Source of the DNA: Flavobacteriaceae bacterium UBA3611
GTDB taxonomy: Bacteria; Bacteroidota; Bacteroidia; Flavobacteriales; Flavobacteriaceae
DNA: 64,000 nucleotides
Direction of reading: 5' to 3'
Assembly (NCBI GenBank): GCA_002375495.1
Contig: DFLU01000005.1
Span: forward strand, 103,503 to 167,502
In this document: piece after piece, positions 52,710 to 60,219 of the stretch
How the letters are laid out: every line of letters begins with the position of its first letter
Position numbering within the stretch: position 1 is the stretch's first letter
The notes under the pieces: model-generated
Database searches by the model: none
Told to the model about the DNA's origin: nothing
The model's input: only the letters and a program-made list of their open reading frames with translations
Position numbers and translations under genes: made by a program

Positions 52710-53294
52710 ATGGCACATAAATGTTTCATAACATTCAAAACGGAAGACATCTCATATAAGGAATATATCAGAGATGAAATGGACGTTGATATGATTGACA
52801 AATCATTAAATGATCCAATAAATTCAGACGATGAAGACTTTATAATGAGAAAAATCAGAGAGGACTATCTTTCTGATTCTACAGTCACAATTTGTCTAAT
52901 TGGCAGTAGGAGTAGCGAAAATTTAGGTTGGGATGAACAGAGGTTTATAAAACGTGAACTTCAAGCTTCACTTTATAATGGGCAAAATAATTCTAAAAGC
53001 GGGATTTTAGGTATTGTCTTGCCATCAATGTATGATTCTATCTATACAGGCTCTGGGATTTGTGATACTTGTGGAAACTCACATACTTATGTTAATATTA
53101 ATGATTCGACAATAATTAAGGAATTTAGTTATAATTATTATATACCTAATAACAAATGCGCTTGGAGTGAAGATGATAGATACTGTGTTTTAGTCAAGTG
53201 GTCAGATTTTAAGATAAATCCAAATTATTACATAGACAAAGCTTTTGACAAAAGGTCGAGTAACATATCAAGTAAAACTAAAGTAAGACCATAA
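52710..53294 (+). CDS. TIR-like protein (ThsB/DUF1863-like)
   Basis: KCFITF first strand, STVTICLIG, FIKRE (candidate catalytic E83), YYIDKAF end; CDTCGNSH insert. Confidence 0.85.
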   Translation: MAHKCFITFKTEDISYKEYIRDEMDVDMIDKSLNDPINSDDEDFIMRKIREDYLSDSTVTICLIGSRSSENLGWDEQRFIKRELQASLYNGQNNSKSGILGIVLPSMYDSIYTGSGICDTCGNSHTYVNINDSTIIKEFSYNYYIPNNKCAWSEDDRYCVLVKWSDFKINPNYYIDKAFDKRSSNISSKTKVRP

Positions 53295-54178
53295 TGGAGT
53301 TTAAAGATTTCCCAGGTTTATACCAAGCTTCTGATGAAGCTTCTCTATCTGCTCAAAAAAATTATAAAAATATTATAGCATACGATTTGATTACTATGAT
53401 TATCGCATCTGCTCTTGCGATTTATAATTACCAGAAAGTGGAACCTAAATTAATTGTTTATGTAATTTCCGGTATTTTCTTACTGATAAGTTTTGCTTTA
53501 ACATTAATTATAAGAACGAAAAAATTTGAAGATGTTTGGTATCAAGGAAGAGCATTAGCTGAATCTTGTAAAACTTTAACTTGGAGATTTGTAACTTGTT
53601 CCGAAAGCTTCGAAAATGACTTAACTAAACAAGATGTAGAAGACTATTTTATATCTAGAGTAAGGGAATTAAGCAAAGAATTTAAAGAATTAAATGATTC
53701 TTTAAATGCAAAAATTGTTGTACTACCCGTAATAACAGATAAAATGTGGGAAATAAGAACCTTAAATACTTTAGAAAGAAAGCAGTACTATATTGAGAAT
53801 AGAATTAATGACCAAAAAGATTGGTACGCTTCAAAAGCAGAATTTAATAAAAAAAAGTATGACAATTGGTTTTTATTAATAATAATATCTCAATTTATAG
53901 CCATAATAAGCGTAGCTTTTCTTATTAAGTATCCTGAATCTAATTGGAATTTAGTAGGTTTATTTACAACCATTTCTGCTTCAGCAATTAGTTGGCTTCA
54001 ATTAAAGCAGCATCAAGAACTCAAACAAGCATACACAACCGCAGCTCAAGAATTGAATTTTATACAAGCATCATTTGGTAATATTAATTCAGATTTAGAA
54101 TTAGCAGAATTTGTTTTGGATTCAGAAAATGCAATTTCTCGTGAACATACTTTATGGCTTGCTCAAAGAAGAAAATAA
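53294..54178 (+). CDS. Double SLATT (DUF4231-like) 4-TM effector
   Basis: Two pairs of TM helices; WYQGRALAESCKTLTWRF, DQKDWY..KA..N, HQEL..AY and E.AISREHTLW motifs. Confidence 0.85.
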   Translation: MEFKDFPGLYQASDEASLSAQKNYKNIIAYDLITMIIASALAIYNYQKVEPKLIVYVISGIFLLISFALTLIIRTKKFEDVWYQGRALAESCKTLTWRFVTCSESFENDLTKQDVEDYFISRVRELSKEFKELNDSLNAKIVVLPVITDKMWEIRTLNTLERKQYYIENRINDQKDWYASKAEFNKKKYDNWFLLIIISQFIAIISVAFLIKYPESNWNLVGLFTTISASAISWLQLKQHQELKQAYTTAAQELNFIQASFGNINSDLELAEFVLDSENAISREHTLWLAQRRK

Positions 54179-54715
54179 ATGACAAATAATAATTCATATA
54201 ATTCCTCTTGGTTAGAACTAATAATTTCTATTGGAGGTGTTTTGCTTTTTGCTCATCTGATATCAAAATTAATAGACTATTTAATTGGTAATTATTATAG
54301 TGAAGAGGATTACTATTTAGAAAAAAGAAAGAAAAGAAAACCTCGGATTTTCGTAAGTCATTCTTGGAAACATAACAAAGATTATAACAATCTTATAAAA
54401 GGATTTGAAAAGCAAGGTTTTGTTTATTATAATCACAGTATATCATTAGAAAAAGCAGAGGATTTAACAAACGGAAAGGAAATTGAAAATAAAATAAAAA
54501 ACCAATTGCTTTATAGCAGATGTCTGCTTGTTCTTGGTGGTAGTTATTCGAATAAGTACTGGATAAAAAAAGAGGTCGAAATAGCAAAATCACTAGGAAA
54601 GAAAGTAATTGCAGTTAGACCTTGGAATACTGACAATATTCCGAAATATTTAGAGAAATCAGCTGATGAAATTATTGGATTTAATTCTAAAGCGATTATT
54701 GAAAAAATAAAATAA
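54179..54715 (+). CDS. TIR-like protein (MTH538/ThsB-like) with N-terminal TM helix
   Basis: TM WLELIISIGGVLLFAHLISKLI, basic KRKKRK, RIFVSHSW, YWIKKE (candidate catalytic E132), KVIAVRPW. Confidence 0.85.
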   Translation: MTNNNSYNSSWLELIISIGGVLLFAHLISKLIDYLIGNYYSEEDYYLEKRKKRKPRIFVSHSWKHNKDYNNLIKGFEKQGFVYYNHSISLEKAEDLTNGKEIENKIKNQLLYSRCLLVLGGSYSNKYWIKKEVEIAKSLGKKVIAVRPWNTDNIPKYLEKSADEIIGFNSKAIIEKIK

Positions 54716-55081: not shown

Positions 55082-55714
55082 TCAATCACACTCCTCCCCA
55101 TACTTCTCCACCATATACCGGGTAGCTTGTTTTAGTGTTTTTCCATTGACCGGATGCAATCCATGATACGTGAAAAATGTGACCACATCGTCGGATTTAT
55201 CATACCATAAAACAGGTTGGCCGTTTTTTTTGACCGCTGCATCTTTGCAAACTTCAACCCTTTTCATTTTTCTGAGTGTTTTGGTATCACATGCTCGTTC
55301 AAGACGCTTACCGCTACATGCGGTTTCCTCCCAATGATCTTCCATCCAAATCATACAACACGTTTCGTCTGTAACAAAGAAATTCCAAGACAACGAAACT
55401 CCCAAGGCCATAATTAAAAACCAAAGCAAATAACTAGAAACTTTGTTACCATTCCTTGTGTTTTTCTGTACGAAGTCACGGTAACTTTCATAACCAATAT
55501 ATCTCGCCAATTGATCCTTCGAATTATTTGCAACATTAAAAGGAATATGATTATTATACTTTCGATAATACCCCCGGATGGCATCGGCTGTGATGGGCTG
55601 TTTTTCTGTTTTCTCTAATGTTTGGTGAATTTCGGAAGCTATAGCACTGCCACTACGCGCAGTTGCTTTTTTGCTTGCTTTCTCAAATACCTTCTTTAAA
55701 AAATTTCGTAACAC
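55082..55714 (-). CDS. Membrane-anchored hypothetical protein (helical N-domain, TM, Cys-rich C-domain)
   Basis: Probable GTG start at 55714 (ORF track extends to 55783); TM YLLWFLIMALGVSLSWNFF; CCMIW..HWEETAC and LWYDK..TFFTYHGLHP. Confidence 0.75.
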   Translation of the reverse strand: MLRNFLKKVFEKASKKATARSGSAIASEIHQTLEKTEKQPITADAIRGYYRKYNNHIPFNVANNSKDQLARYIGYESYRDFVQKNTRNGNKVSSYLLWFLIMALGVSLSWNFFVTDETCCMIWMEDHWEETACSGKRLERACDTKTLRKMKRVEVCKDAAVKKNGQPVLWYDKSDDVVTFFTYHGLHPVNGKTLKQATRYMVEKYGEECD

Positions 55715-56081
55715 ATTCCCGTTTTTAAATCGATAGAAAATTACAATTCTTTTTTGGAAAGTTCTTGGAATATAAGTTTCCAAAAGCTTTCCAGCTACTT
55801 TCTAGGCCCATCTTCTGCAACTTTCTCATATTTGTCCTGTACTGCTGATCGCCCGAGCGTAATAGGGTTTTTACGAATATTTCAACAGTACTTACTGGAG
55901 TCGCATTGTACTGTGCCAAGACCATTTTGAGAAGTAATCTGACACACGGTACTTCTGCGCTCCACACTTCTCAACCGAAGAGCTTACTCTTCCCTTAATT
56001 GTATGGCTTACGGCCTAAACTCACAATCTGAGCCAAGACTCGGACAGCCATACGCATGTCAAATCTTTAAATACAAATACA

Positions 56082-56249
56082 ATGAAAAAGTTGTCATATA
56101 TCATGCTTTCATGTTTGCTAGGCGGACTTATTTTCTCCTGCACTCCCGAGAGCCAAATAACCACAGATGAAGTCGCGTGTTGCGGTGAAGATGGTCATTT
56201 ACCCCCACCGCCTCCACCACCCCCACCACCACCAAATGGCGGGGACTAA
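56082..56249 (+). CDS. 55-aa lipopeptide with (Pro)11 tail, absent from ORF track
   Basis: MKKLSYIMLSCLLGGLIFSC-TPESQITTDEVACCGEDGHLPPPPPPPPPPPNGGD*: basic N-terminus, hydrophobic core, lipobox IFSC, mixed Pro codons; ends 30 nt before the kinase ATG. Confidence 0.8.
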   Translation: MKKLSYIMLSCLLGGLIFSCTPESQITTDEVACCGEDGHLPPPPPPPPPPPNGGD

Positions 56250-56279
56250 TAACTAATATTTAGTTATTACATTTGAGGA

Positions 56280-57950
56280 ATGGAAAAATCAAACTTTTCA
56301 TTCCTCTTTTTTTTGAAGGTAGTATTCATGCTGAGCAGTTTACTATCATCATCATCATATTGTTTCGCGCAACAAACAGTGGATAGCACTGCCTATTTCT
56401 ACAACAAGATTTTAAACCCTGATTCTGCAGACGATCTAGTCGTTAGTTACGTGTACTTCAAAAAATATAAAGAAGAGAAAGGTATAGACCAAGACACTCT
56501 TGGACTTGTTTTCACATACCAAATGTTAGCAATGGCGGAATATAAATTGGGCCAAATCTACGCTAGTGAACAATCAGCCATTGAGGCTCTTAAATTGAAA
56601 GAGATTGCTTCAGATGTATTACAGTTTCCCGACGGGACCGAAAGTCGCATCAATAATCATTTAGGCATGGTCTACAGAACTACCGCCCAACCTGAAAAAG
56701 CTATACAAATCTATTCTAAAGCCTTATCGAAAAACAAAAGCTTAAAGGATAGCCTTATACTCTTAAACAACTTAGCGAATGCCCATCGGGATAGCGGAAA
56801 CTATGATGAGGCAGTTGACTTATTGACGTCAGTTGTTAGAAGAAATAAAAAATTGAACAATCCGGTTGAAACAGCCAGGGCGTTGGATAATTTGGGATAT
56901 ACACAAGCATTGGCTAATGACCCGAAAGGACTAGAAAACATGTTGGAAGCACTAGAACTTCGGAAAGAATTAGGCAATCCTGGCCAACTTTTTACAAGTT
57001 ATAATCATCTTACCGAATACTACGCATCCATAGGCGATACCACCACTGCTAGAATGTATGCCGTTTTGGGAAAGAATCTCGCGAAAAAGGTGAGCACAAA
57101 ATATCGTCAAGAGGCCCTTGAGTCTTACTTTGCGTTAAGTGATGATCCCGAAATTGTGGAATACATTCGTAATAACGACAGTATCACAAAAGCGTCCCTT
57201 CAAAATGATATCAAATTCGCGAGTATCAAATATGACTTTTCAAAAGAACAAGAACGAACCCAGGTTGCGCAACTAGAACGTCAGAAAGAAAGTCAAAGGA
57301 AAAATCTCTTTAAGGTCATTGGGCTATTTATATTATTGCTGGGTATAGCGTTATATTTCGTATTGAAGTATCGCCATCGAAAGGAGAAAGTTGAAGAAAT
57401 CTATCGAACCGAATCCCGAATTTCTAAAAAAGTACATGATGAAGTAGCTAATGATCTTTATCAAATTATGAGCAAAATACAGACCTCTATCCAATCAAAT
57501 GATACAATACTCGATGATTTAGATTCGGTATACCACAAAACCCGGGATATTTCAAAAGATTATGGACTAATTGAACCGGAAGAAGAATTCGGCGAACTCT
57601 TAAACGACCTGCTCCTAAACTATCAAAACGACCAAGTGAATGTGATCTCCAAAAACTTGCTTCGTATCGATTGGAATGGCTTGGCAACCGAAAAAAAGAT
57701 TGCCCTCTATCGAGTGTTACAGGAGTTAATGACCAATATGCGCAAGCATAGCGAAGCCTCATTAGTAGTGGTTTCAGCAGAAAAGCTGGGAAGTAAATAT
57801 GTTGTTGAATATACCGATAACGGTACGGGTGGCCCTATAAAAATAGGCAACGGACTCCGAAATGCGGAAAACCGTATTCACTCGGTAAAGGGAACGATTA
57901 TATTTGAACCAACCGAAAGAAATGGCTTCAAGGCAAAAATAAAGTTGTAG
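56280..57950 (+). CDS. TPR-repeat sensor histidine kinase (HisKA_3 type)
   Basis: Signal-like N-terminus, TPRs (NNHLG, LNNLA, LDNLG), TM helix, KKVHDEVAN H-box, ELMTNMRKHS, DNGTG, GNGLRN. Confidence 0.93.
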   Translation: MEKSNFSFLFFLKVVFMLSSLLSSSSYCFAQQTVDSTAYFYNKILNPDSADDLVVSYVYFKKYKEEKGIDQDTLGLVFTYQMLAMAEYKLGQIYASEQSAIEALKLKEIASDVLQFPDGTESRINNHLGMVYRTTAQPEKAIQIYSKALSKNKSLKDSLILLNNLANAHRDSGNYDEAVDLLTSVVRRNKKLNNPVETARALDNLGYTQALANDPKGLENMLEALELRKELGNPGQLFTSYNHLTEYYASIGDTTTARMYAVLGKNLAKKVSTKYRQEALESYFALSDDPEIVEYIRNNDSITKASLQNDIKFASIKYDFSKEQERTQVAQLERQKESQRKNLFKVIGLFILLLGIALYFVLKYRHRKEKVEEIYRTESRISKKVHDEVANDLYQIMSKIQTSIQSNDTILDDLDSVYHKTRDISKDYGLIEPEEEFGELLNDLLLNYQNDQVNVISKNLLRIDWNGLATEKKIALYRVLQELMTNMRKHSEASLVVVSAEKLGSKYVVEYTDNGTGGPIKIGNGLRNAENRIHSVKGTIIFEPTERNGFKAKIKL

Positions 57951-57951
57951 T

Positions 57952-58617
57952 ATGTTTTCAAAAGTATTGGTCTCTGACGATCTGGACTGTATCAATTCGG
58001 GTGTAGCCAACACCTTAACTTTATTGGGCGTGAACGATATCGTCAAGGTACAATACTGTGATGACGCCTATCTAAAAATAAAGAGTGCGGCCTTAAAAGA
58101 ACATCCCTTCGAACTCTTGATTACCGATCTCTCTTATGTGCCCGACCATCGGGAACAGAATTTTAATTCGGGCGAGGAGCTTATTGCCATCATCAAGAAA
58201 GAGCATCCAGAGGTAAAAATCATTGTGTATTCTGTGGAAGACCGCAAACAGCGGGTTGCCAACATTATGAACGAACTCAAGGCAGATGCTTATGTGTGCA
58301 AAGGCAGAAACGGATTAAAGGAATTGGAACAGGCCATTACAAGCGTGTATAACGGCCAAACCTATCTCTCTACCCAACTTCAACACCTACTGCATAAAAG
58401 TTCGCATTCAGAAATAGACGATTTTGACATAGAGTTGGTGCGTCTCTTATCGCTTGGCCATTCCCAAGAGGAAATCAGTACGCTATTTAAAGATCGAGAT
58501 GTGAGTCCGAGTAGTCTAAGCTCCATCGAAAAGCGGCTGAATCGTTTAAAAATTCAGTTTAAGGCAAACAATGCCATTCATTTGGTGAGTATTGTAAAGG
58601 ATTTGGGCTTAATTTAG
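57952..58617 (+). CDS. Response regulator (REC plus C-terminal HTH)
   Basis: VSDD, LITDLS phosphoacceptor, AYVCKG; C-terminal LGHSQEEIS...SSIEKRLNRLK. Confidence 0.92.
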   Translation: MFSKVLVSDDLDCINSGVANTLTLLGVNDIVKVQYCDDAYLKIKSAALKEHPFELLITDLSYVPDHREQNFNSGEELIAIIKKEHPEVKIIVYSVEDRKQRVANIMNELKADAYVCKGRNGLKELEQAITSVYNGQTYLSTQLQHLLHKSSHSEIDDFDIELVRLLSLGHSQEEISTLFKDRDVSPSSLSSIEKRLNRLKIQFKANNAIHLVSIVKDLGLI

Positions 58618-58658: not shown

Positions 58659-59264
58659 ATGAAAATTAAGTATATTATTACAATTATCCTTTTAGTTTTG
58701 ATGCAATTTAATTGCTCTAATGGTCCTGAAATCAAAACAGAAACTAAAAAACTGATTGAAAATAGAAGTATCTATTTAAATGGAGGTCTAAACGCTAATT
58801 TTGGAGGAAAGTCAAGAACGGTATTGAAAATAGATTTGCCGCCAAACACGGTTGAATGGTATTATAGTTTTTCAACCACAAAAGGTGAGAGCGGAACACA
58901 AAATTTGAACTTAGCAATTCAGTTAGCCGCCTTGATGGCTGACTCAAGTGGTTTAACGTCAGGTATTCTATCTTCCATAAAAGTACCGGAGGGCGTTGCA
59001 TCTGCAGACATTTATTTATTGGACAAAACTAACATGGCTAAGTTCATCGCAAAGGAGGACTTTGATGGTGAGCAAATTTCATATGCTATGGAAGGCACTG
59101 TGGAAAGTACTAAACAAGCTGTTGTAAGAATAAATGATATTACTTCGGGAACTGTTTATTTAGGCTTAAAAAATCCGAGCACCATGAATAGTGTCACAAT
59201 AAATATAGAAGTAGTAGCAATTACGGAATCAACAATCGAGCCCATATTGGTTAAAACGCCATAA
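58659..59264 (+). CDS. Secreted/lipoprotein of unknown function
   Basis: Signal peptide with possible lipobox QFNC; GGKSR..LPPNTVEWYYSF segment. Confidence 0.7.
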   Translation: MKIKYIITIILLVLMQFNCSNGPEIKTETKKLIENRSIYLNGGLNANFGGKSRTVLKIDLPPNTVEWYYSFSTTKGESGTQNLNLAIQLAALMADSSGLTSGILSSIKVPEGVASADIYLLDKTNMAKFIAKEDFDGEQISYAMEGTVESTKQAVVRINDITSGTVYLGLKNPSTMNSVTINIEVVAITESTIEPILVKTP

Positions 59265-59314: not shown

Positions 59315-59328
59315 TACGGATTTCCGTA
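59315..59328 (+). promoter_or_regulatory. Putative response-regulator box (second family)
   Basis: TACGGATTTCCGTA palindrome; TATCATTG 22 nt downstream. Confidence 0.6.
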
Positions 59329-59399
59329 AAGTAATTACATTCATTATTCATATCATTGGGTGTTTGATAGCCAAAAGGCTTTCACATTGGGGAGCATAG

Positions 59400-59430
59400 A
59401 AAAGACACTGTAAAAGGTGTCTTTTTTTTT
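59400..59430 (+). terminator. Intrinsic terminator
   Basis: AAAAGACAC-TGTAAAAG-GTGTCTTTT followed by further Ts. Confidence 0.8.
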
Positions 59431-59434
59431 GTGG

Positions 59435-59479
59435 TTACGGATTACCGTAAGGAAAATGTGGTTTTGAATTGTAGGTTTG
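59435..59479 (+). promoter_or_regulatory. Response-regulator box plus -7 element
   Basis: TTACGGATTACCGTAA (59435-59450) and a perfect TAGGTTTG (59472-59479). Confidence 0.7.
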
Positions 59480-59502: not shown

Positions 59503-60219
59503 ATGAAAATTACTACGCTTACTTTACTTCTACTCCTTTTAATTGTTCCTAAATCGAATGCCCAAGACGACGGTCTTCTCGGAGCTGTAGCAGGTGTTGC
59601 TGCTATAGGCGCCGTCATTGTAGCAGTAGACCAAATGAAGGAACAAGCTGAGCTGAATGCCACCGAATGGTTACTCAACAACCATCCTGAAATGAATAGT
59701 TTTTCTCTCAAAACGCTTTCGTTTGATGGAAAAAAAGCCAAGGATATGTCATCGGTTTCGGTAATTACTTATAAAATCCAAGAGTTTGAACTGCAGGATA
59801 AACCAGAATTGGATGGTAAAAAATATGTTTTATTTGGTTTCACAAGTTACGGCTGGGCCAATGAAATGGGTGTTGATTTAAACCGAATTATCTGGCATAT
59901 GATTGATAAAGAAGAGTGGATAAACATGATGGTAGCATACGTAAAAACAGCTTCTCAGGAACAAAATGAAGAAAAAATTAGAGATTTATTAAAAAGCGGC
60001 AAAATTGTAAATAAAGGCGTGCGTGAAGGATTTGATCTTACTATACCATTTTATCGGATGAATGGTGACATGTATTCCGTACAGGACTATAATGAGATGA
60101 TGAAGTTAATCTATAATGAACGGTCATTAGGCATCTACCTAAAAGCAACTGAAAATCTGGTACAAATTGGAAGAGGCGACATAATTGATATTCATGAGTT
60201 TTTTACGGAAAACGATTAG
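59503..60219 (+). CDS. Secreted hypothetical protein
   Basis: Start moved to MKITTLTLLLL (signal peptide); the ORF-track N-terminus overlaps the promoter. Confidence 0.75.
   Translation: MKITTLTLLLLLLIVPKSNAQDDGLLGAVAGVAAIGAVIVAVDQMKEQAELNATEWLLNNHPEMNSFSLKTLSFDGKKAKDMSSVSVITYKIQEFELQDKPELDGKKYVLFGFTSYGWANEMGVDLNRIIWHMIDKEEWINMMVAYVKTASQEQNEEKIRDLLKSGKIVNKGVREGFDLTIPFYRMNGDMYSVQDYNEMMKLIYNERSLGIYLKATENLVQIGRGDIIDIHEFFTEND

Follow-up and report, generated by a model that had tools for sequence, protein, structure and literature searches.

A conserved poly-proline lipopeptide gene linked to a family of TPR-sensor histidine kinases in Flavobacteriaceae

The 64,000-nucleotide stretch of DNA analysed here (the window; contig DFLU01000005.1 of Flavobacteriaceae bacterium UBA3611, positions 103,503 to 167,502) carries an open reading frame (ORF) for a 55-residue poly-proline lipopeptide at 56082..56249 (+), directly ahead of the genes for a sensor histidine kinase with a tetratricopeptide repeat (TPR) domain and for a response regulator. 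Its conservation across genera, and its link to the kinase in both a forward and a reverse test, establish the ORF as a genuine protein-coding gene that belongs with this TPR kinase family. Its product is predicted to be exported and lipid-anchored, since the signal peptide, the lipobox and the mature motif are conserved and the ORF outlasts loss of the proline run or of the cysteine pair. In the reading that we favour, for which we put the case as evenly balanced, the lipopeptide is a tethered accessory ligand or co-sensor acting on the kinase TPR domain and/or on p233, a divergently encoded membrane protein. A preliminary description of the locus had joined the lipopeptide and the kinase into one system, and both are indeed linked; it had missed p233, a leader RNA ahead of the lipopeptide gene, a hairpin over the kinase start and a -7 box belonging to the kinase.

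The Lipopeptide Gene and Its Family

Read directly from the sequence, the 55 residues are MKKLSYIMLSCLLGGLIFSCTPESQITTDEVACCGEDGHLPPPPPPPPPPPNGGD. The signal peptide (56082-56138) opens with MKK, continues into the hydrophobic LSYIMLSCLLGGLIF and leads to the lipobox I-F-S-C20, with Cys20 at 56139-56141. The predicted mature peptide after cleavage at Cys20 has about 36 residues, C-TPESQITTDEV-ACC-GEDGH-L-P11-NGGD, and includes the vicinal pair Cys33-Cys34 (56178-56183), the run Pro41-Pro51 (56202-56234) and the tail NGGD. The eleven proline codons are two CCC, seven CCA, one CCG and one CCT, with all four Pro codons represented. A run of CCN codons of this length occurs once in the window and was reached by none of 100 shuffles. 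The stop at 56249 and the kinase ATG at 56280 are separated by a gap of 30 nt. In all these respects, from the lipoprotein signal and the CC pair to the 11 prolines, their four codons and the 30-nt spacing, the sequence bears out the preliminary description.

That description called the gene unannotated, which is roughly right. Gene callers often skip or mis-start the lipopeptide gene: the ORF is left uncalled in near-identical contigs, and the database copy of the window peptide is a 48-residue version begun at Met8. We take Met1 rather than Met8 to be the true start because the family consensus opens with Met, Lys, Lys, each present in at least 80% of the homologues (alignment of 64). The peptide matched no family in Pfam or NCBIfam, and a word-indexed homology search returned only itself, as the 48-aa copy. 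Homologues were gathered instead through loci anchored on the kinase, by exact look-ups and by a full phmmer scan. The scan, over 1.84 billion representatives, gave 62 proteins at E ≤ 0.001, mostly of 42-85 aa, with the match covering almost the whole protein; the short matches carry no annotation in the searched library. Ten homologues looked up by exact sequence in RefSeq and UniProt are named "hypothetical protein" or "Lipoprotein" only, and a literature search found no account of the lipopeptide family.

There are 65 distinct homologues from several genera of Flavobacteriaceae. Their consensus runs MKKI.LIL.TVFLN..LFSC(T/S)P, an acidic variable linker, ACCG(D/E)(D/E)G.(I/L), a run of 4-12 prolines and a tail of G, N or D. 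Within the lipobox consensus L-F-S-C, S and C are each found in 80% or more of the 64 homologues in the alignment; the CC pair is kept in 63/65 members, and proline occupies position +3 in 52/65. The spacing from the CC pair to the proline run is exactly 6 or 7 residues, the residue ahead of the run is I or L, and the run itself varies between 4 and 12 residues with a mode of 7. No indel among the homologues shifts the frame, and each of the four Pro codons is used. The peptides of loci L088 and L110 differ in the length of the proline run and are otherwise identical. The relatives whose kinase is 93% identical to that of the window, such as the contig L001, have a peptide that differs from the window peptide by D55N alone; in the comparison of the window with these relatives, the kinase is less conserved than the ORF and leader.

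Six loci carry degraded versions of the lipopeptide gene and one carries a remnant. In L053, L057, L077, L081 and L031 the ORF is kept together with the hairpin at the kinase start described below, and there is no run of four or more prolines; L037 has lost the CC pair. Because the degenerate lineages retain the signal peptide, the lipobox and a G-D-D-G-E-I-L-P core yet drop the proline run or the CC pair, the gene appears to function at the level of the protein. The ratio of nonsynonymous to synonymous differences per site (pN/pS) over the whole ORF is about 0.56 at saturated pS, a value that is uninformative because the linker is variable, and position-specific conservation was used in its place.

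The residues after the lipid-bearing cysteine bear on sorting. The Bacteroidota lipoprotein export signal (LES) consists of at least two acidic residues following a polar or basic residue at about +2 to +6, as in C-X-K-(D/E)2, SDDFE and SDDDD (PMC5080379). The window peptide, with CTPESQ, has one acidic residue there and is not clearly of this kind. At least two acidic residues occur at +2 to +6 in 15/65 members, and at most one in the other 50/65. An LES-like acidic motif follows the cysteine in 8/65 members (for example CSESDDFD and CTDDDE), the lipopeptides of Polaribacter and Tenacibaculum being LES-like.

Association with the Kinase and with p233

In the forward test, 80 genome loci were fetched around kinase relatives of 38-54% identity, and the upstream DNA was read. 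A lipopeptide ORF lies directly upstream of the kinase in about 50 of the 80, ending 20-110 nt before the kinase match, with the distance from the stop to the kinase ATG mostly 27-34 nt. The carriers belong to Rasiella, Ulvibacter, Patiriisocius, Aequorivita, Flavivirga, Jejuia, Polaribacter, Algibacter, Tenacibaculum, Maribacter, Muriicola, Flagellimonas, Aureibaculum and Flavobacterium. In the reverse test, a DNA pattern for CCG[DE][DE]G-x-[ILVFM]-PPPPP, blind to the kinase, was scanned over metagenome contigs. It gave 29 matches, and 29/29 are lipobox ORFs belonging to this family: the kinase gene follows directly in 26, two lie at contig ends and one (L090) has no kinase. The preliminary description had suggested looking upstream of Bacteroidota TPR kinases for small ORFs with a lipobox and a proline-rich stretch, and both searches recover them, in about 50/80 and 26/29 cases.

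One genome holds paralogous kinases with and without the lipopeptide (loci L024 and L056). Since its place next to the kinase is fixed and these paralogues differ in carrying it, the lipopeptide looks like a dedicated partner of the adjacent kinase system. In Xanthomarina (L075:8421-8700), a second p233-leader-lipopeptide copy lies about 4 kb downstream of a kinase that lacks the lipopeptide; therefore, genomes seem able to hold several such modules. Two long kinase homologues, P0017 and P0081, were considered as peptide-kinase fusions and rejected, their N-terminal extensions being out-of-frame readings of the peptide gene.

The second associated gene, p233, diverges from the lipopeptide gene at 55082..55714 (-). 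Its likely start is the GTG at 55714, giving 210 aa; the frame is open to a TTG at 55783, and this annotated start is probably 23 codons too far upstream. Homologues of p233 lie divergently upstream in 43/80 genome loci, and their distribution follows that of the lipopeptide: 40 loci have both, 29 have neither, 8 have the lipopeptide only (mostly at contig ends) and 3 have p233 only (Fisher p = 2e-11). The AlphaFold2 model (mean predicted local distance difference test score, pLDDT, 73) consists of a helical cytoplasmic N-domain, one transmembrane helix and a small periplasmic beta domain, in which three cysteines are invariant. The database homologues, of 205-233 aa, are all called "hypothetical". 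Searches of Pfam and NCBIfam gave no family for p233 and a profile search of the PDB gave no match; no winged-helix or other DNA-binding family match was detected in the searches made, and the fold matches to XRE/SinR/EspR-like proteins are weak and not significant (probability ≤0.33). By sequence, then, p233 appears to represent an uncharacterised family of bitopic membrane proteins.

The Sensor Kinase and Response Regulator

The kinase (56280..57950, +; 556 aa) comprises a signal peptide, a periplasmic TPR superhelix, one transmembrane segment, a HisKA_3-like H-box and an ATPase domain. One search found more than 1000 relatives in Flavobacteriaceae. Pfam recognises TPR at residues ~120-215 and, weakly, HATPase_c; partial NCBIfam matches are to UhpB, LiaS and NarX. 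The H-box K-V-H386-D-E-V-A-N (KKVHDEVAN) is invariant in 25 homologues. In the AlphaFold model (pLDDT 81), an N-terminal signal helix is followed by TPR helices at 36-285 (pLDDT >90), by a single long helix that passes through the membrane segment into the H-box, and by the catalytic domain. Foldseek matched the kinase core to DesK (5iuj, 3gig) and VraS (4gt8) with probability 1.0. The DesK/VraS-like core and the H-box are of the HisKA_3 type; the Pfam HisKA_3 model gave no match at E ≤ 0.01.

The TPR helices are placed between the signal peptide and the transmembrane segment, which makes them periplasmic and not cytoplasmic. Their fold matches the LGN/Pins TPR superhelix with probability 1.0, at TM-scores of 0.5-0.6 (normalised to the target chain) and 16-20% identity, and ranked highest are crystal structures in which the LGN/Pins TPR domain is bound to Inscuteable, NuMA or Frmpd4. 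Partners of this kind (Inscuteable, NuMA, Frmpd) are long extended peptides of tens of residues that lie in the inner channel of the LGN/Pins TPR domain. The extracytoplasmic part of the kinase was thus rightly described as TPR, and it is a superhelix of a peptide-binding type. The sensor domain has an average net charge of +6 and the mature lipopeptide one of -6. This electrostatic complementarity was considered as evidence of binding and set aside as non-discriminating, the sensor charge being equal in kinases without the lipopeptide (p = 0.95).

The response regulator (57952..58617, +) is predicted to have a receiver domain and a LuxR/NarL-like C-terminal helix-turn-helix (HTH). Its Response_reg score is 24.6 bits (cut-off 30.2), the NCBIfam matches to RcsB, NarL and UvrY are partial, and there is no match to Pfam GerE. 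The regulator adjoins the kinase in 84/84 loci.

A Terminator-Like Hairpin and a -7 Box at the Kinase Start

A terminator-like hairpin spans 56275..56314 (+). Its stem, GAGGAATGGAAAA/TTTTCATTCCTC (56275-56306), is followed by T8; the kinase ATG is in the 5' arm, and the 3' arm with the T-run forms the kinase codons S-F-L-F-F. With 12 pairs, an 8-nt loop and a folding free energy (dG) of about -15 kcal/mol, it is the top terminator-like site in a scan of the region, and we consider it a putative intrinsic terminator. Across 52 loci, 92.6% of the cells are paired; sliding the partners lowers this to 65% at most. A compensatory change reaches the protein: base -1 pairs with the second base of a Phe codon, as A-U in 42 sequences and as G-C in 8, and the kinase residue goes from Phe to Ser where the G-C keeps the stem paired. 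The hairpin and T-run are present in 48/52 loci with a lipopeptide gene, intact or degenerate, versus 5/21 without (p = 1e-8).

Overlapping the base of the stem is TACATTTG (56268..56275, +), a match to the sigma-A -7 box, with 4 nt between its end and the kinase ATG. For Flavobacterium, the sigma-A box TAnnTTTG has been placed at -12 to -5 and leaderless transcripts put at 5.5% of mRNAs (PMC9723704). The arrangement TAnnTT[AT]G, exactly 4 nt and ATG occurs in 73/81 loci, including 21/26 without the lipopeptide, and the alignment columns T19, A20, T23 and T24 (alignment A5) are invariant and lie outside the stem. The position of the box therefore predicts a transcription start site at A56280, the A of the kinase AUG, and hence a leaderless kinase mRNA. 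Such an mRNA would lack the GAGGA base of the stem, so it would neither terminate at the hairpin nor hide its own start. The lipopeptide transcript would end at the hairpin, and the kinase and regulator would be carried on a separate leaderless mRNA. The preliminary description had the lipopeptide heading the kinase operon. Because of the hairpin with its T8 over the kinase ATG and the -7 box of the kinase, it is probably not the operon head.

Two other structures at this junction were tried and rejected. A conserved anti-terminator is not seen across 60 loci, the partners of the 5' arm varying from locus to locus, and classical attenuation was rejected with it. An intergenic palindrome TAATAACTAA-tat-TTAGTTATTA (56247-56269) was discarded when its structure proved not to be conserved in relatives.

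A Structured Leader RNA

About 170 nt ahead of the lipopeptide start (within 55897-56081, +) fold into conserved elements. The first, H1 (55897..55963), is a long imperfect hairpin, GGAGTCGCATTGTACTGTG ... CACACGGTACTTCTGCGCTCC, whose arms differ in sequence between genera with the pairing kept; over 57 loci the mean duplex dG is -24.3 kcal/mol versus -10.9 kcal/mol when shuffled. In H2 (55929..55972), GAGAAGT in the H1 loop (55929-55935) pairs with ACTTCTC (55966-55972), so that H2 would be either a pseudoknot with H1 or an alternative to it. Its cells are paired in 95.7% of cases, and pair 67-112 is A-U in 34 sequences and G-C in 18 with one exception. T1 (55977..55992), GAAGAGCTTACTCTTC, is a terminator-like hairpin that is followed by a T-rich tract in many relatives; its sequence varies, the pairing is kept and G-U pairs are frequent. 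Domain 2 (56001..56053) has a stem GTATGGCT/AGCCATAC around the hairpin CTGAG/CTCGG, and this inner hairpin (columns 192-196/209-213 of alignment A7) shows up to five pair types. On the 3' side of the stem there is a conserved GGACAGC..TGTC..AATTTT and then an A-rich start region.

Over the 53 sequences of alignment A8, the leader structure has 84.3% paired cells versus 45-54% when slid, and 144 double-change cells versus 70 in shuffles, a number reached by 0 of 500 shuffles. The frequent G-U pairs are consistent with an RNA on the + strand. A search of Rfam with this region of the window and seven related loci assigned neither the leader nor the hairpin nor the inter-palindrome RNA described below to a family. 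We regard the leader as a candidate new cis-regulatory RNA. TTTG-N20-TACTTCTG was examined as a promoter within it and rejected; the segment is the 3' strand of the covarying H1 and has unrelated sequence in Maribacter.

Output Promoters and Neighbouring Genes

The palindrome TTACGG-N4-CCGTAA has four matches in the window, with 0.34 expected. Two of them lie downstream of the regulator gene: ACGGATTTCCGT at 59316-59327 (+), 23 nt upstream of the -7 box TATCATTG (59351-59358), and TTACGGATTACCGTAA with its core at 59437-59448 (+), 23 nt upstream of TAGGTTTG (59472-59479). In roughly 50 of 80 genome loci (L005-L084) the regulator gene is followed within ~250 nt by a palindrome, often as two copies 100-125 nt apart. 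TAnnTTTG exactly 23 nt after the last palindrome is found in about 37/54 loci with a downstream ORF, and in the window after both palindromes. It is likely that the palindrome is the operator of the regulator, at about -40 of two tandem promoters. It is absent upstream of the lipopeptide gene, in the region between p233 and the lipopeptide.

The first of these promoters would likely produce a short RNA ending at a terminator-like hairpin between the palindromes (59398-59427, +), and the second would likely express p238 or other small envelope proteins. Between the palindromes there is a conserved, predicted short transcript (..TTGGGGAGCATAG..) up to that hairpin, a candidate small RNA. The gene p238 (59503..60219, +) encodes an exported or membrane protein and is the gene found most often behind the second palindrome promoter, with homologues in 19 loci; it forms the largest target cluster, of 16 loci. 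It has no match in Pfam or NCBIfam. In the window, the regulator gene and the palindromes are separated by an inserted gene for a 201-aa lipoprotein, lp201 (58659-59264, +). Outside the closest relatives this gene occurs only in L006 and L042; most loci have the palindromes directly after the regulator gene. Like p238, lp201 has no match in Pfam or NCBIfam.

Upstream, at 53294-54715 (+), there is a defence-type pair of genes with a low GC content of 0.29-0.31, encoding a SLATT-domain protein (53294-54178) and then a TIR/ThsB-like protein (54179-54715). The near-identical contig L001 has a guanylate-cyclase-domain gene where the window has this pair, so the stretch appears to be a variable islet. 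A few kb downstream of the module, the closest relatives (L001:11712-13289 and L002:7060-9016) encode a type I restriction-modification methylase (HsdM/N6_Mtase), followed in L002 by a KAP NTPase gene. These are signs of a variable, defence-rich neighbourhood.

The Role of the Lipopeptide

We picture the lipopeptide as a dedicated accessory of a four-gene envelope-signalling module made up of p233, the lipopeptide, the TPR kinase and the LuxR-type regulator. Export and cleavage at Cys20 would leave a lipid-anchored peptide of ~36 residues. On the periplasmic side, its extended C-terminal CC/acidic/poly-Pro segment may enter the groove of the TPR superhelix and/or engage the Cys domain of p233, and the vicinal cysteines could serve as a redox or soft-metal switch. 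The amount of lipopeptide would be set apart from that of the kinase by its own leader RNA and by the ending of its transcript at the hairpin over the kinase start, and the kinase and regulator would be read from the overlapping promoter as a leaderless mRNA. The separate transcripts, the binding partners, the chemistry of the cysteines and the export and lipidation are all things that we infer from sequence. We favour a tethered ligand or co-sensor because the sensor is an LGN-like TPR domain and the mature peptide is short and acidic with a stiff poly-Pro end. Direct binding to the TPR domain alone is a narrower claim, which we hold only tentatively and consider somewhat doubtful.

Several observations weigh against a tethered ligand or co-sensor of the kinase. 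Kinases without the lipopeptide have an unchanged TPR architecture and net charge, so the TPR domain appears to be independent of it. The lipopeptide is tracked more tightly by p233 than by the kinase, and L090 has p233 and the lipopeptide with the kinase absent. Some members have the LES-like motif and may be outside the periplasm, since the motif resembles that of surface export. Lastly, there is the evidence on transcripts. The sequencing runs that contain the window are DNA or of unspecified kind. Contigs from RNA-seq runs on cultures of another organism cover the leader, lipopeptide, kinase and regulator of a related Aequorivita strain; these are unstranded assemblies, possibly of DNA, that document presence in RNA libraries and not transcript ends. 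They span the peptide-kinase junction unbroken, by read-through or by DNA carry-over.

Some of the same observations favour a different partner. The lipopeptide could belong to p233 and not to the kinase, in a ToxR/ToxS- or TcpP/TcpH-like pair with possible mixed disulfides, and feed the kinase only indirectly, for example by transcription in the divergent region. The tightest co-occurrence is that of p233 and lipopeptide (40 loci with both, 29 with neither), the kinase-less L090 retains just these two, and the kinase-regulator pair occurs without either of them. The three invariant periplasmic cysteines, an odd number, the helical N-domain and the weak XRE-like folds would also suit such a protein. 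However, those fold matches fall short of significance and no DNA-binding family was matched; the lipopeptide gene abuts the kinase in 26 of 27 informative cases of the reverse test, and the hairpin physically couples the lipopeptide and kinase genes. We consider this arrangement unlikely.

The favoured reading can also be extended into a fuller mechanism, which we think quite unlikely to hold as a whole. In it, the lipid-anchored peptide, a poly-Pro rod with a vicinal-Cys switch, would thread the TPR superhelix together with p233, so that the kinase would read the geometry, redox state or metal content of the envelope; the supply of peptide would be governed through a riboswitch-like leader RNA and a device combining terminator and leaderless promoter. 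If true, it would be a new principle of envelope surveillance in Bacteroidota.

The preliminary description offered two readings: either the lipopeptide is the cognate ligand or inhibitor of the TPR sensor, in a cell-cell or envelope-sensing circuit, or it is an EF-P-sensitive leader gating kinase expression. As a leader, the ORF would be a regulatory upstream frame, in which slow translation of the proline run, dependent on elongation factor P (EF-P), sets the amount of kinase through the hairpin at its start codon and the peptide product is secondary. Nearly all members do have runs of 5-12 consecutive prolines, the hairpin and T-run over the kinase ATG are almost confined to loci with the ORF, and the distance from stop to ATG is narrow, mostly 27-34 nt. 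The geometry is unfavourable, though: with ~25 nt between the stop and the stem, a terminating ribosome would end ~10 nt short of the stem, and the proline run is 41-73 nt upstream of it. No conserved alternative pairing was found over the 60 loci, and five lineages (L053, L057, L077, L081 and L031) have kept the ORF and hairpin after losing the proline run. The signal peptide, lipobox, CC pair and acidic motif are conserved although a leader needs none of them, and the kinase apparently has its own promoter. We judge an EF-P-sensitive leader improbable.

The cell-cell form of the ligand reading would have a surface or released lipopeptide act on the TPR kinases of nearby cells, as peptide quorum sensing in a Bacteroidota version. 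A gene for a small exported peptide adjoins a gene for a TPR receptor, eight of the 65 members have the LES-like motif, and the linker is variable with the recognition motif conserved. But CTPESQ in the window is no clear LES, and 50/65 members have at most one acidic residue in the relevant positions. There are no processing or export genes conserved in the loci, the operator is absent upstream of the lipopeptide gene so that no autoinduction loop is visible, and the outer membrane would separate a surface peptide from a periplasmic sensor. With the TPR domain in the periplasm and the peptide lipid-anchored, the likeness to RRNPP quorum sensing drawn in the preliminary description fits poorly, and we regard such signalling as very improbable.

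Finally, the ORF might be a non-functional frame that arose by chance over a C-rich tract, either regulatory or prone to slippage, as its neglect by gene callers in close relatives and the variable length of the proline run (L088 versus L110) might suggest. This can be dismissed: across genera whose kinases are 40% identical, the reading frame, the start, the lipobox, the CC pair and the spacing of the motifs are conserved, every indel is in frame, and the four Pro codons are all in use.

Comparison with Known Systems

The two-component systems of marine Flavobacteriaceae are almost unstudied, and kinases with TPR sensors are among their commonest types. The accessory module, which belongs to one branch of these kinases, newly defines a family of small lipoproteins, a family of membrane proteins, a structured leader RNA and a compact overlap of terminator and leaderless promoter. 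What the kinase senses can be approached experimentally in cultured carriers such as Ulvibacter, Tenacibaculum, Maribacter, Polaribacter and Flavobacterium suaedae, and TTACGG-N4-CCGTAA at 23 nt before a -7 box, as the likely output promoter, could be used as a reporter.

Among peptide-regulated systems, the RRNPP family (Rap/Phr, PlcR/PapR, NprR/NprX, PrgX) has a gene for an exported pro-peptide next to that for a TPR receptor whose groove binds the extended peptide, an arrangement like the one here. In RRNPP systems, which belong to Firmicutes, the receptor is a cytoplasmic protein and the peptide is taken back up by Opp after its release; here the TPR domain is periplasmic and part of a kinase, and the peptide carries a lipobox. 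Neither processing genes nor opp genes are conserved in the lipopeptide loci, though they could be encoded elsewhere. RRNPP systems show positive autoinduction; here none is seen, the palindromes, whose operator role is itself a prediction, being downstream of the regulator gene only. LGN/Pins resembles the sensor at the level of the fold, as an eight-repeat superhelix, but it is a eukaryotic cytoplasmic scaffold, and the likeness does not imply its ligands here.

Arrest-peptide monitors are known from SecM-secA, MifM-yidC2 and VemP-secDF2, and CadC is under EF-P-dependent poly-Pro control. Like the lipopeptide locus, the monitors combine a short upstream ORF, whose product has an export signal and stalls ribosomes near its C-terminus, with an RNA structure that hides a start; the candidate stall motif of the lipopeptide, also C-terminal, has 11 prolines in the window and 4-12 in the family. 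They differ in that the geometry here keeps a stalled or terminating ribosome off the hairpin, some lineages have lost the stall motif, the mature part is conserved at the protein level, and the downstream kinase has its own predicted promoter. By analogy, p233 may be compared with ToxR/ToxS, TcpP/TcpH and CadC as a bitopic protein with a helical, possibly HTH, cytoplasmic part, a periplasmic Cys domain and a small periplasmic partner; unlike ToxR, TcpP and CadC, it has no detected winged-helix or other DNA-binding match.

The lipoproteins NlpE, RcsF and QseG are co-sensors in envelope stress systems, in the pairs NlpE-CpxA, RcsF-IgaA and QseG-QseE. In our reading the lipopeptide would be analogous, as a lipoprotein that reports on the envelope to a signalling protein of the inner membrane, and in RcsF a proline-rich linker spans the periplasm (PMC4942254; Rcs review, PMC5651002). 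NlpE, RcsF and QseG have folded domains of 100-230 aa, whereas the lipopeptide has ~36 acidic, apparently unstructured residues with a conserved CC/poly-Pro end; it comes from a different phylum and has no homology to them.

Small membrane "connector" proteins modulate the sensor kinases of enterobacteria in MgrB-PhoQ, SafA-PhoQ and MzrA-EnvZ, and the periplasmic cysteines of MgrB link its kinase to the redox state. Like them, the lipopeptide is predicted to be a membrane-anchored peptide (~50-130 aa) whose periplasmic part modulates a sensor kinase. It differs from them in lacking sequence similarity, in having a lipid anchor in place of a transmembrane helix and a TPR superhelix sensor in place of PDC/PAS, in the fixed position of its gene beside the kinase, and in the co-occurrence of a third membrane protein, p233. 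No family match in Pfam or NCBIfam links it to any of MgrB, SafA, MzrA, NlpE, RcsF or QseG. These small membrane-protein and lipoprotein modulators of sensor kinases are nonetheless the closest known kind, from which the present system is set apart by its peptide family, its TPR sensor, its phylum, p233, the leader RNA and the overlap of terminator and leaderless promoter.

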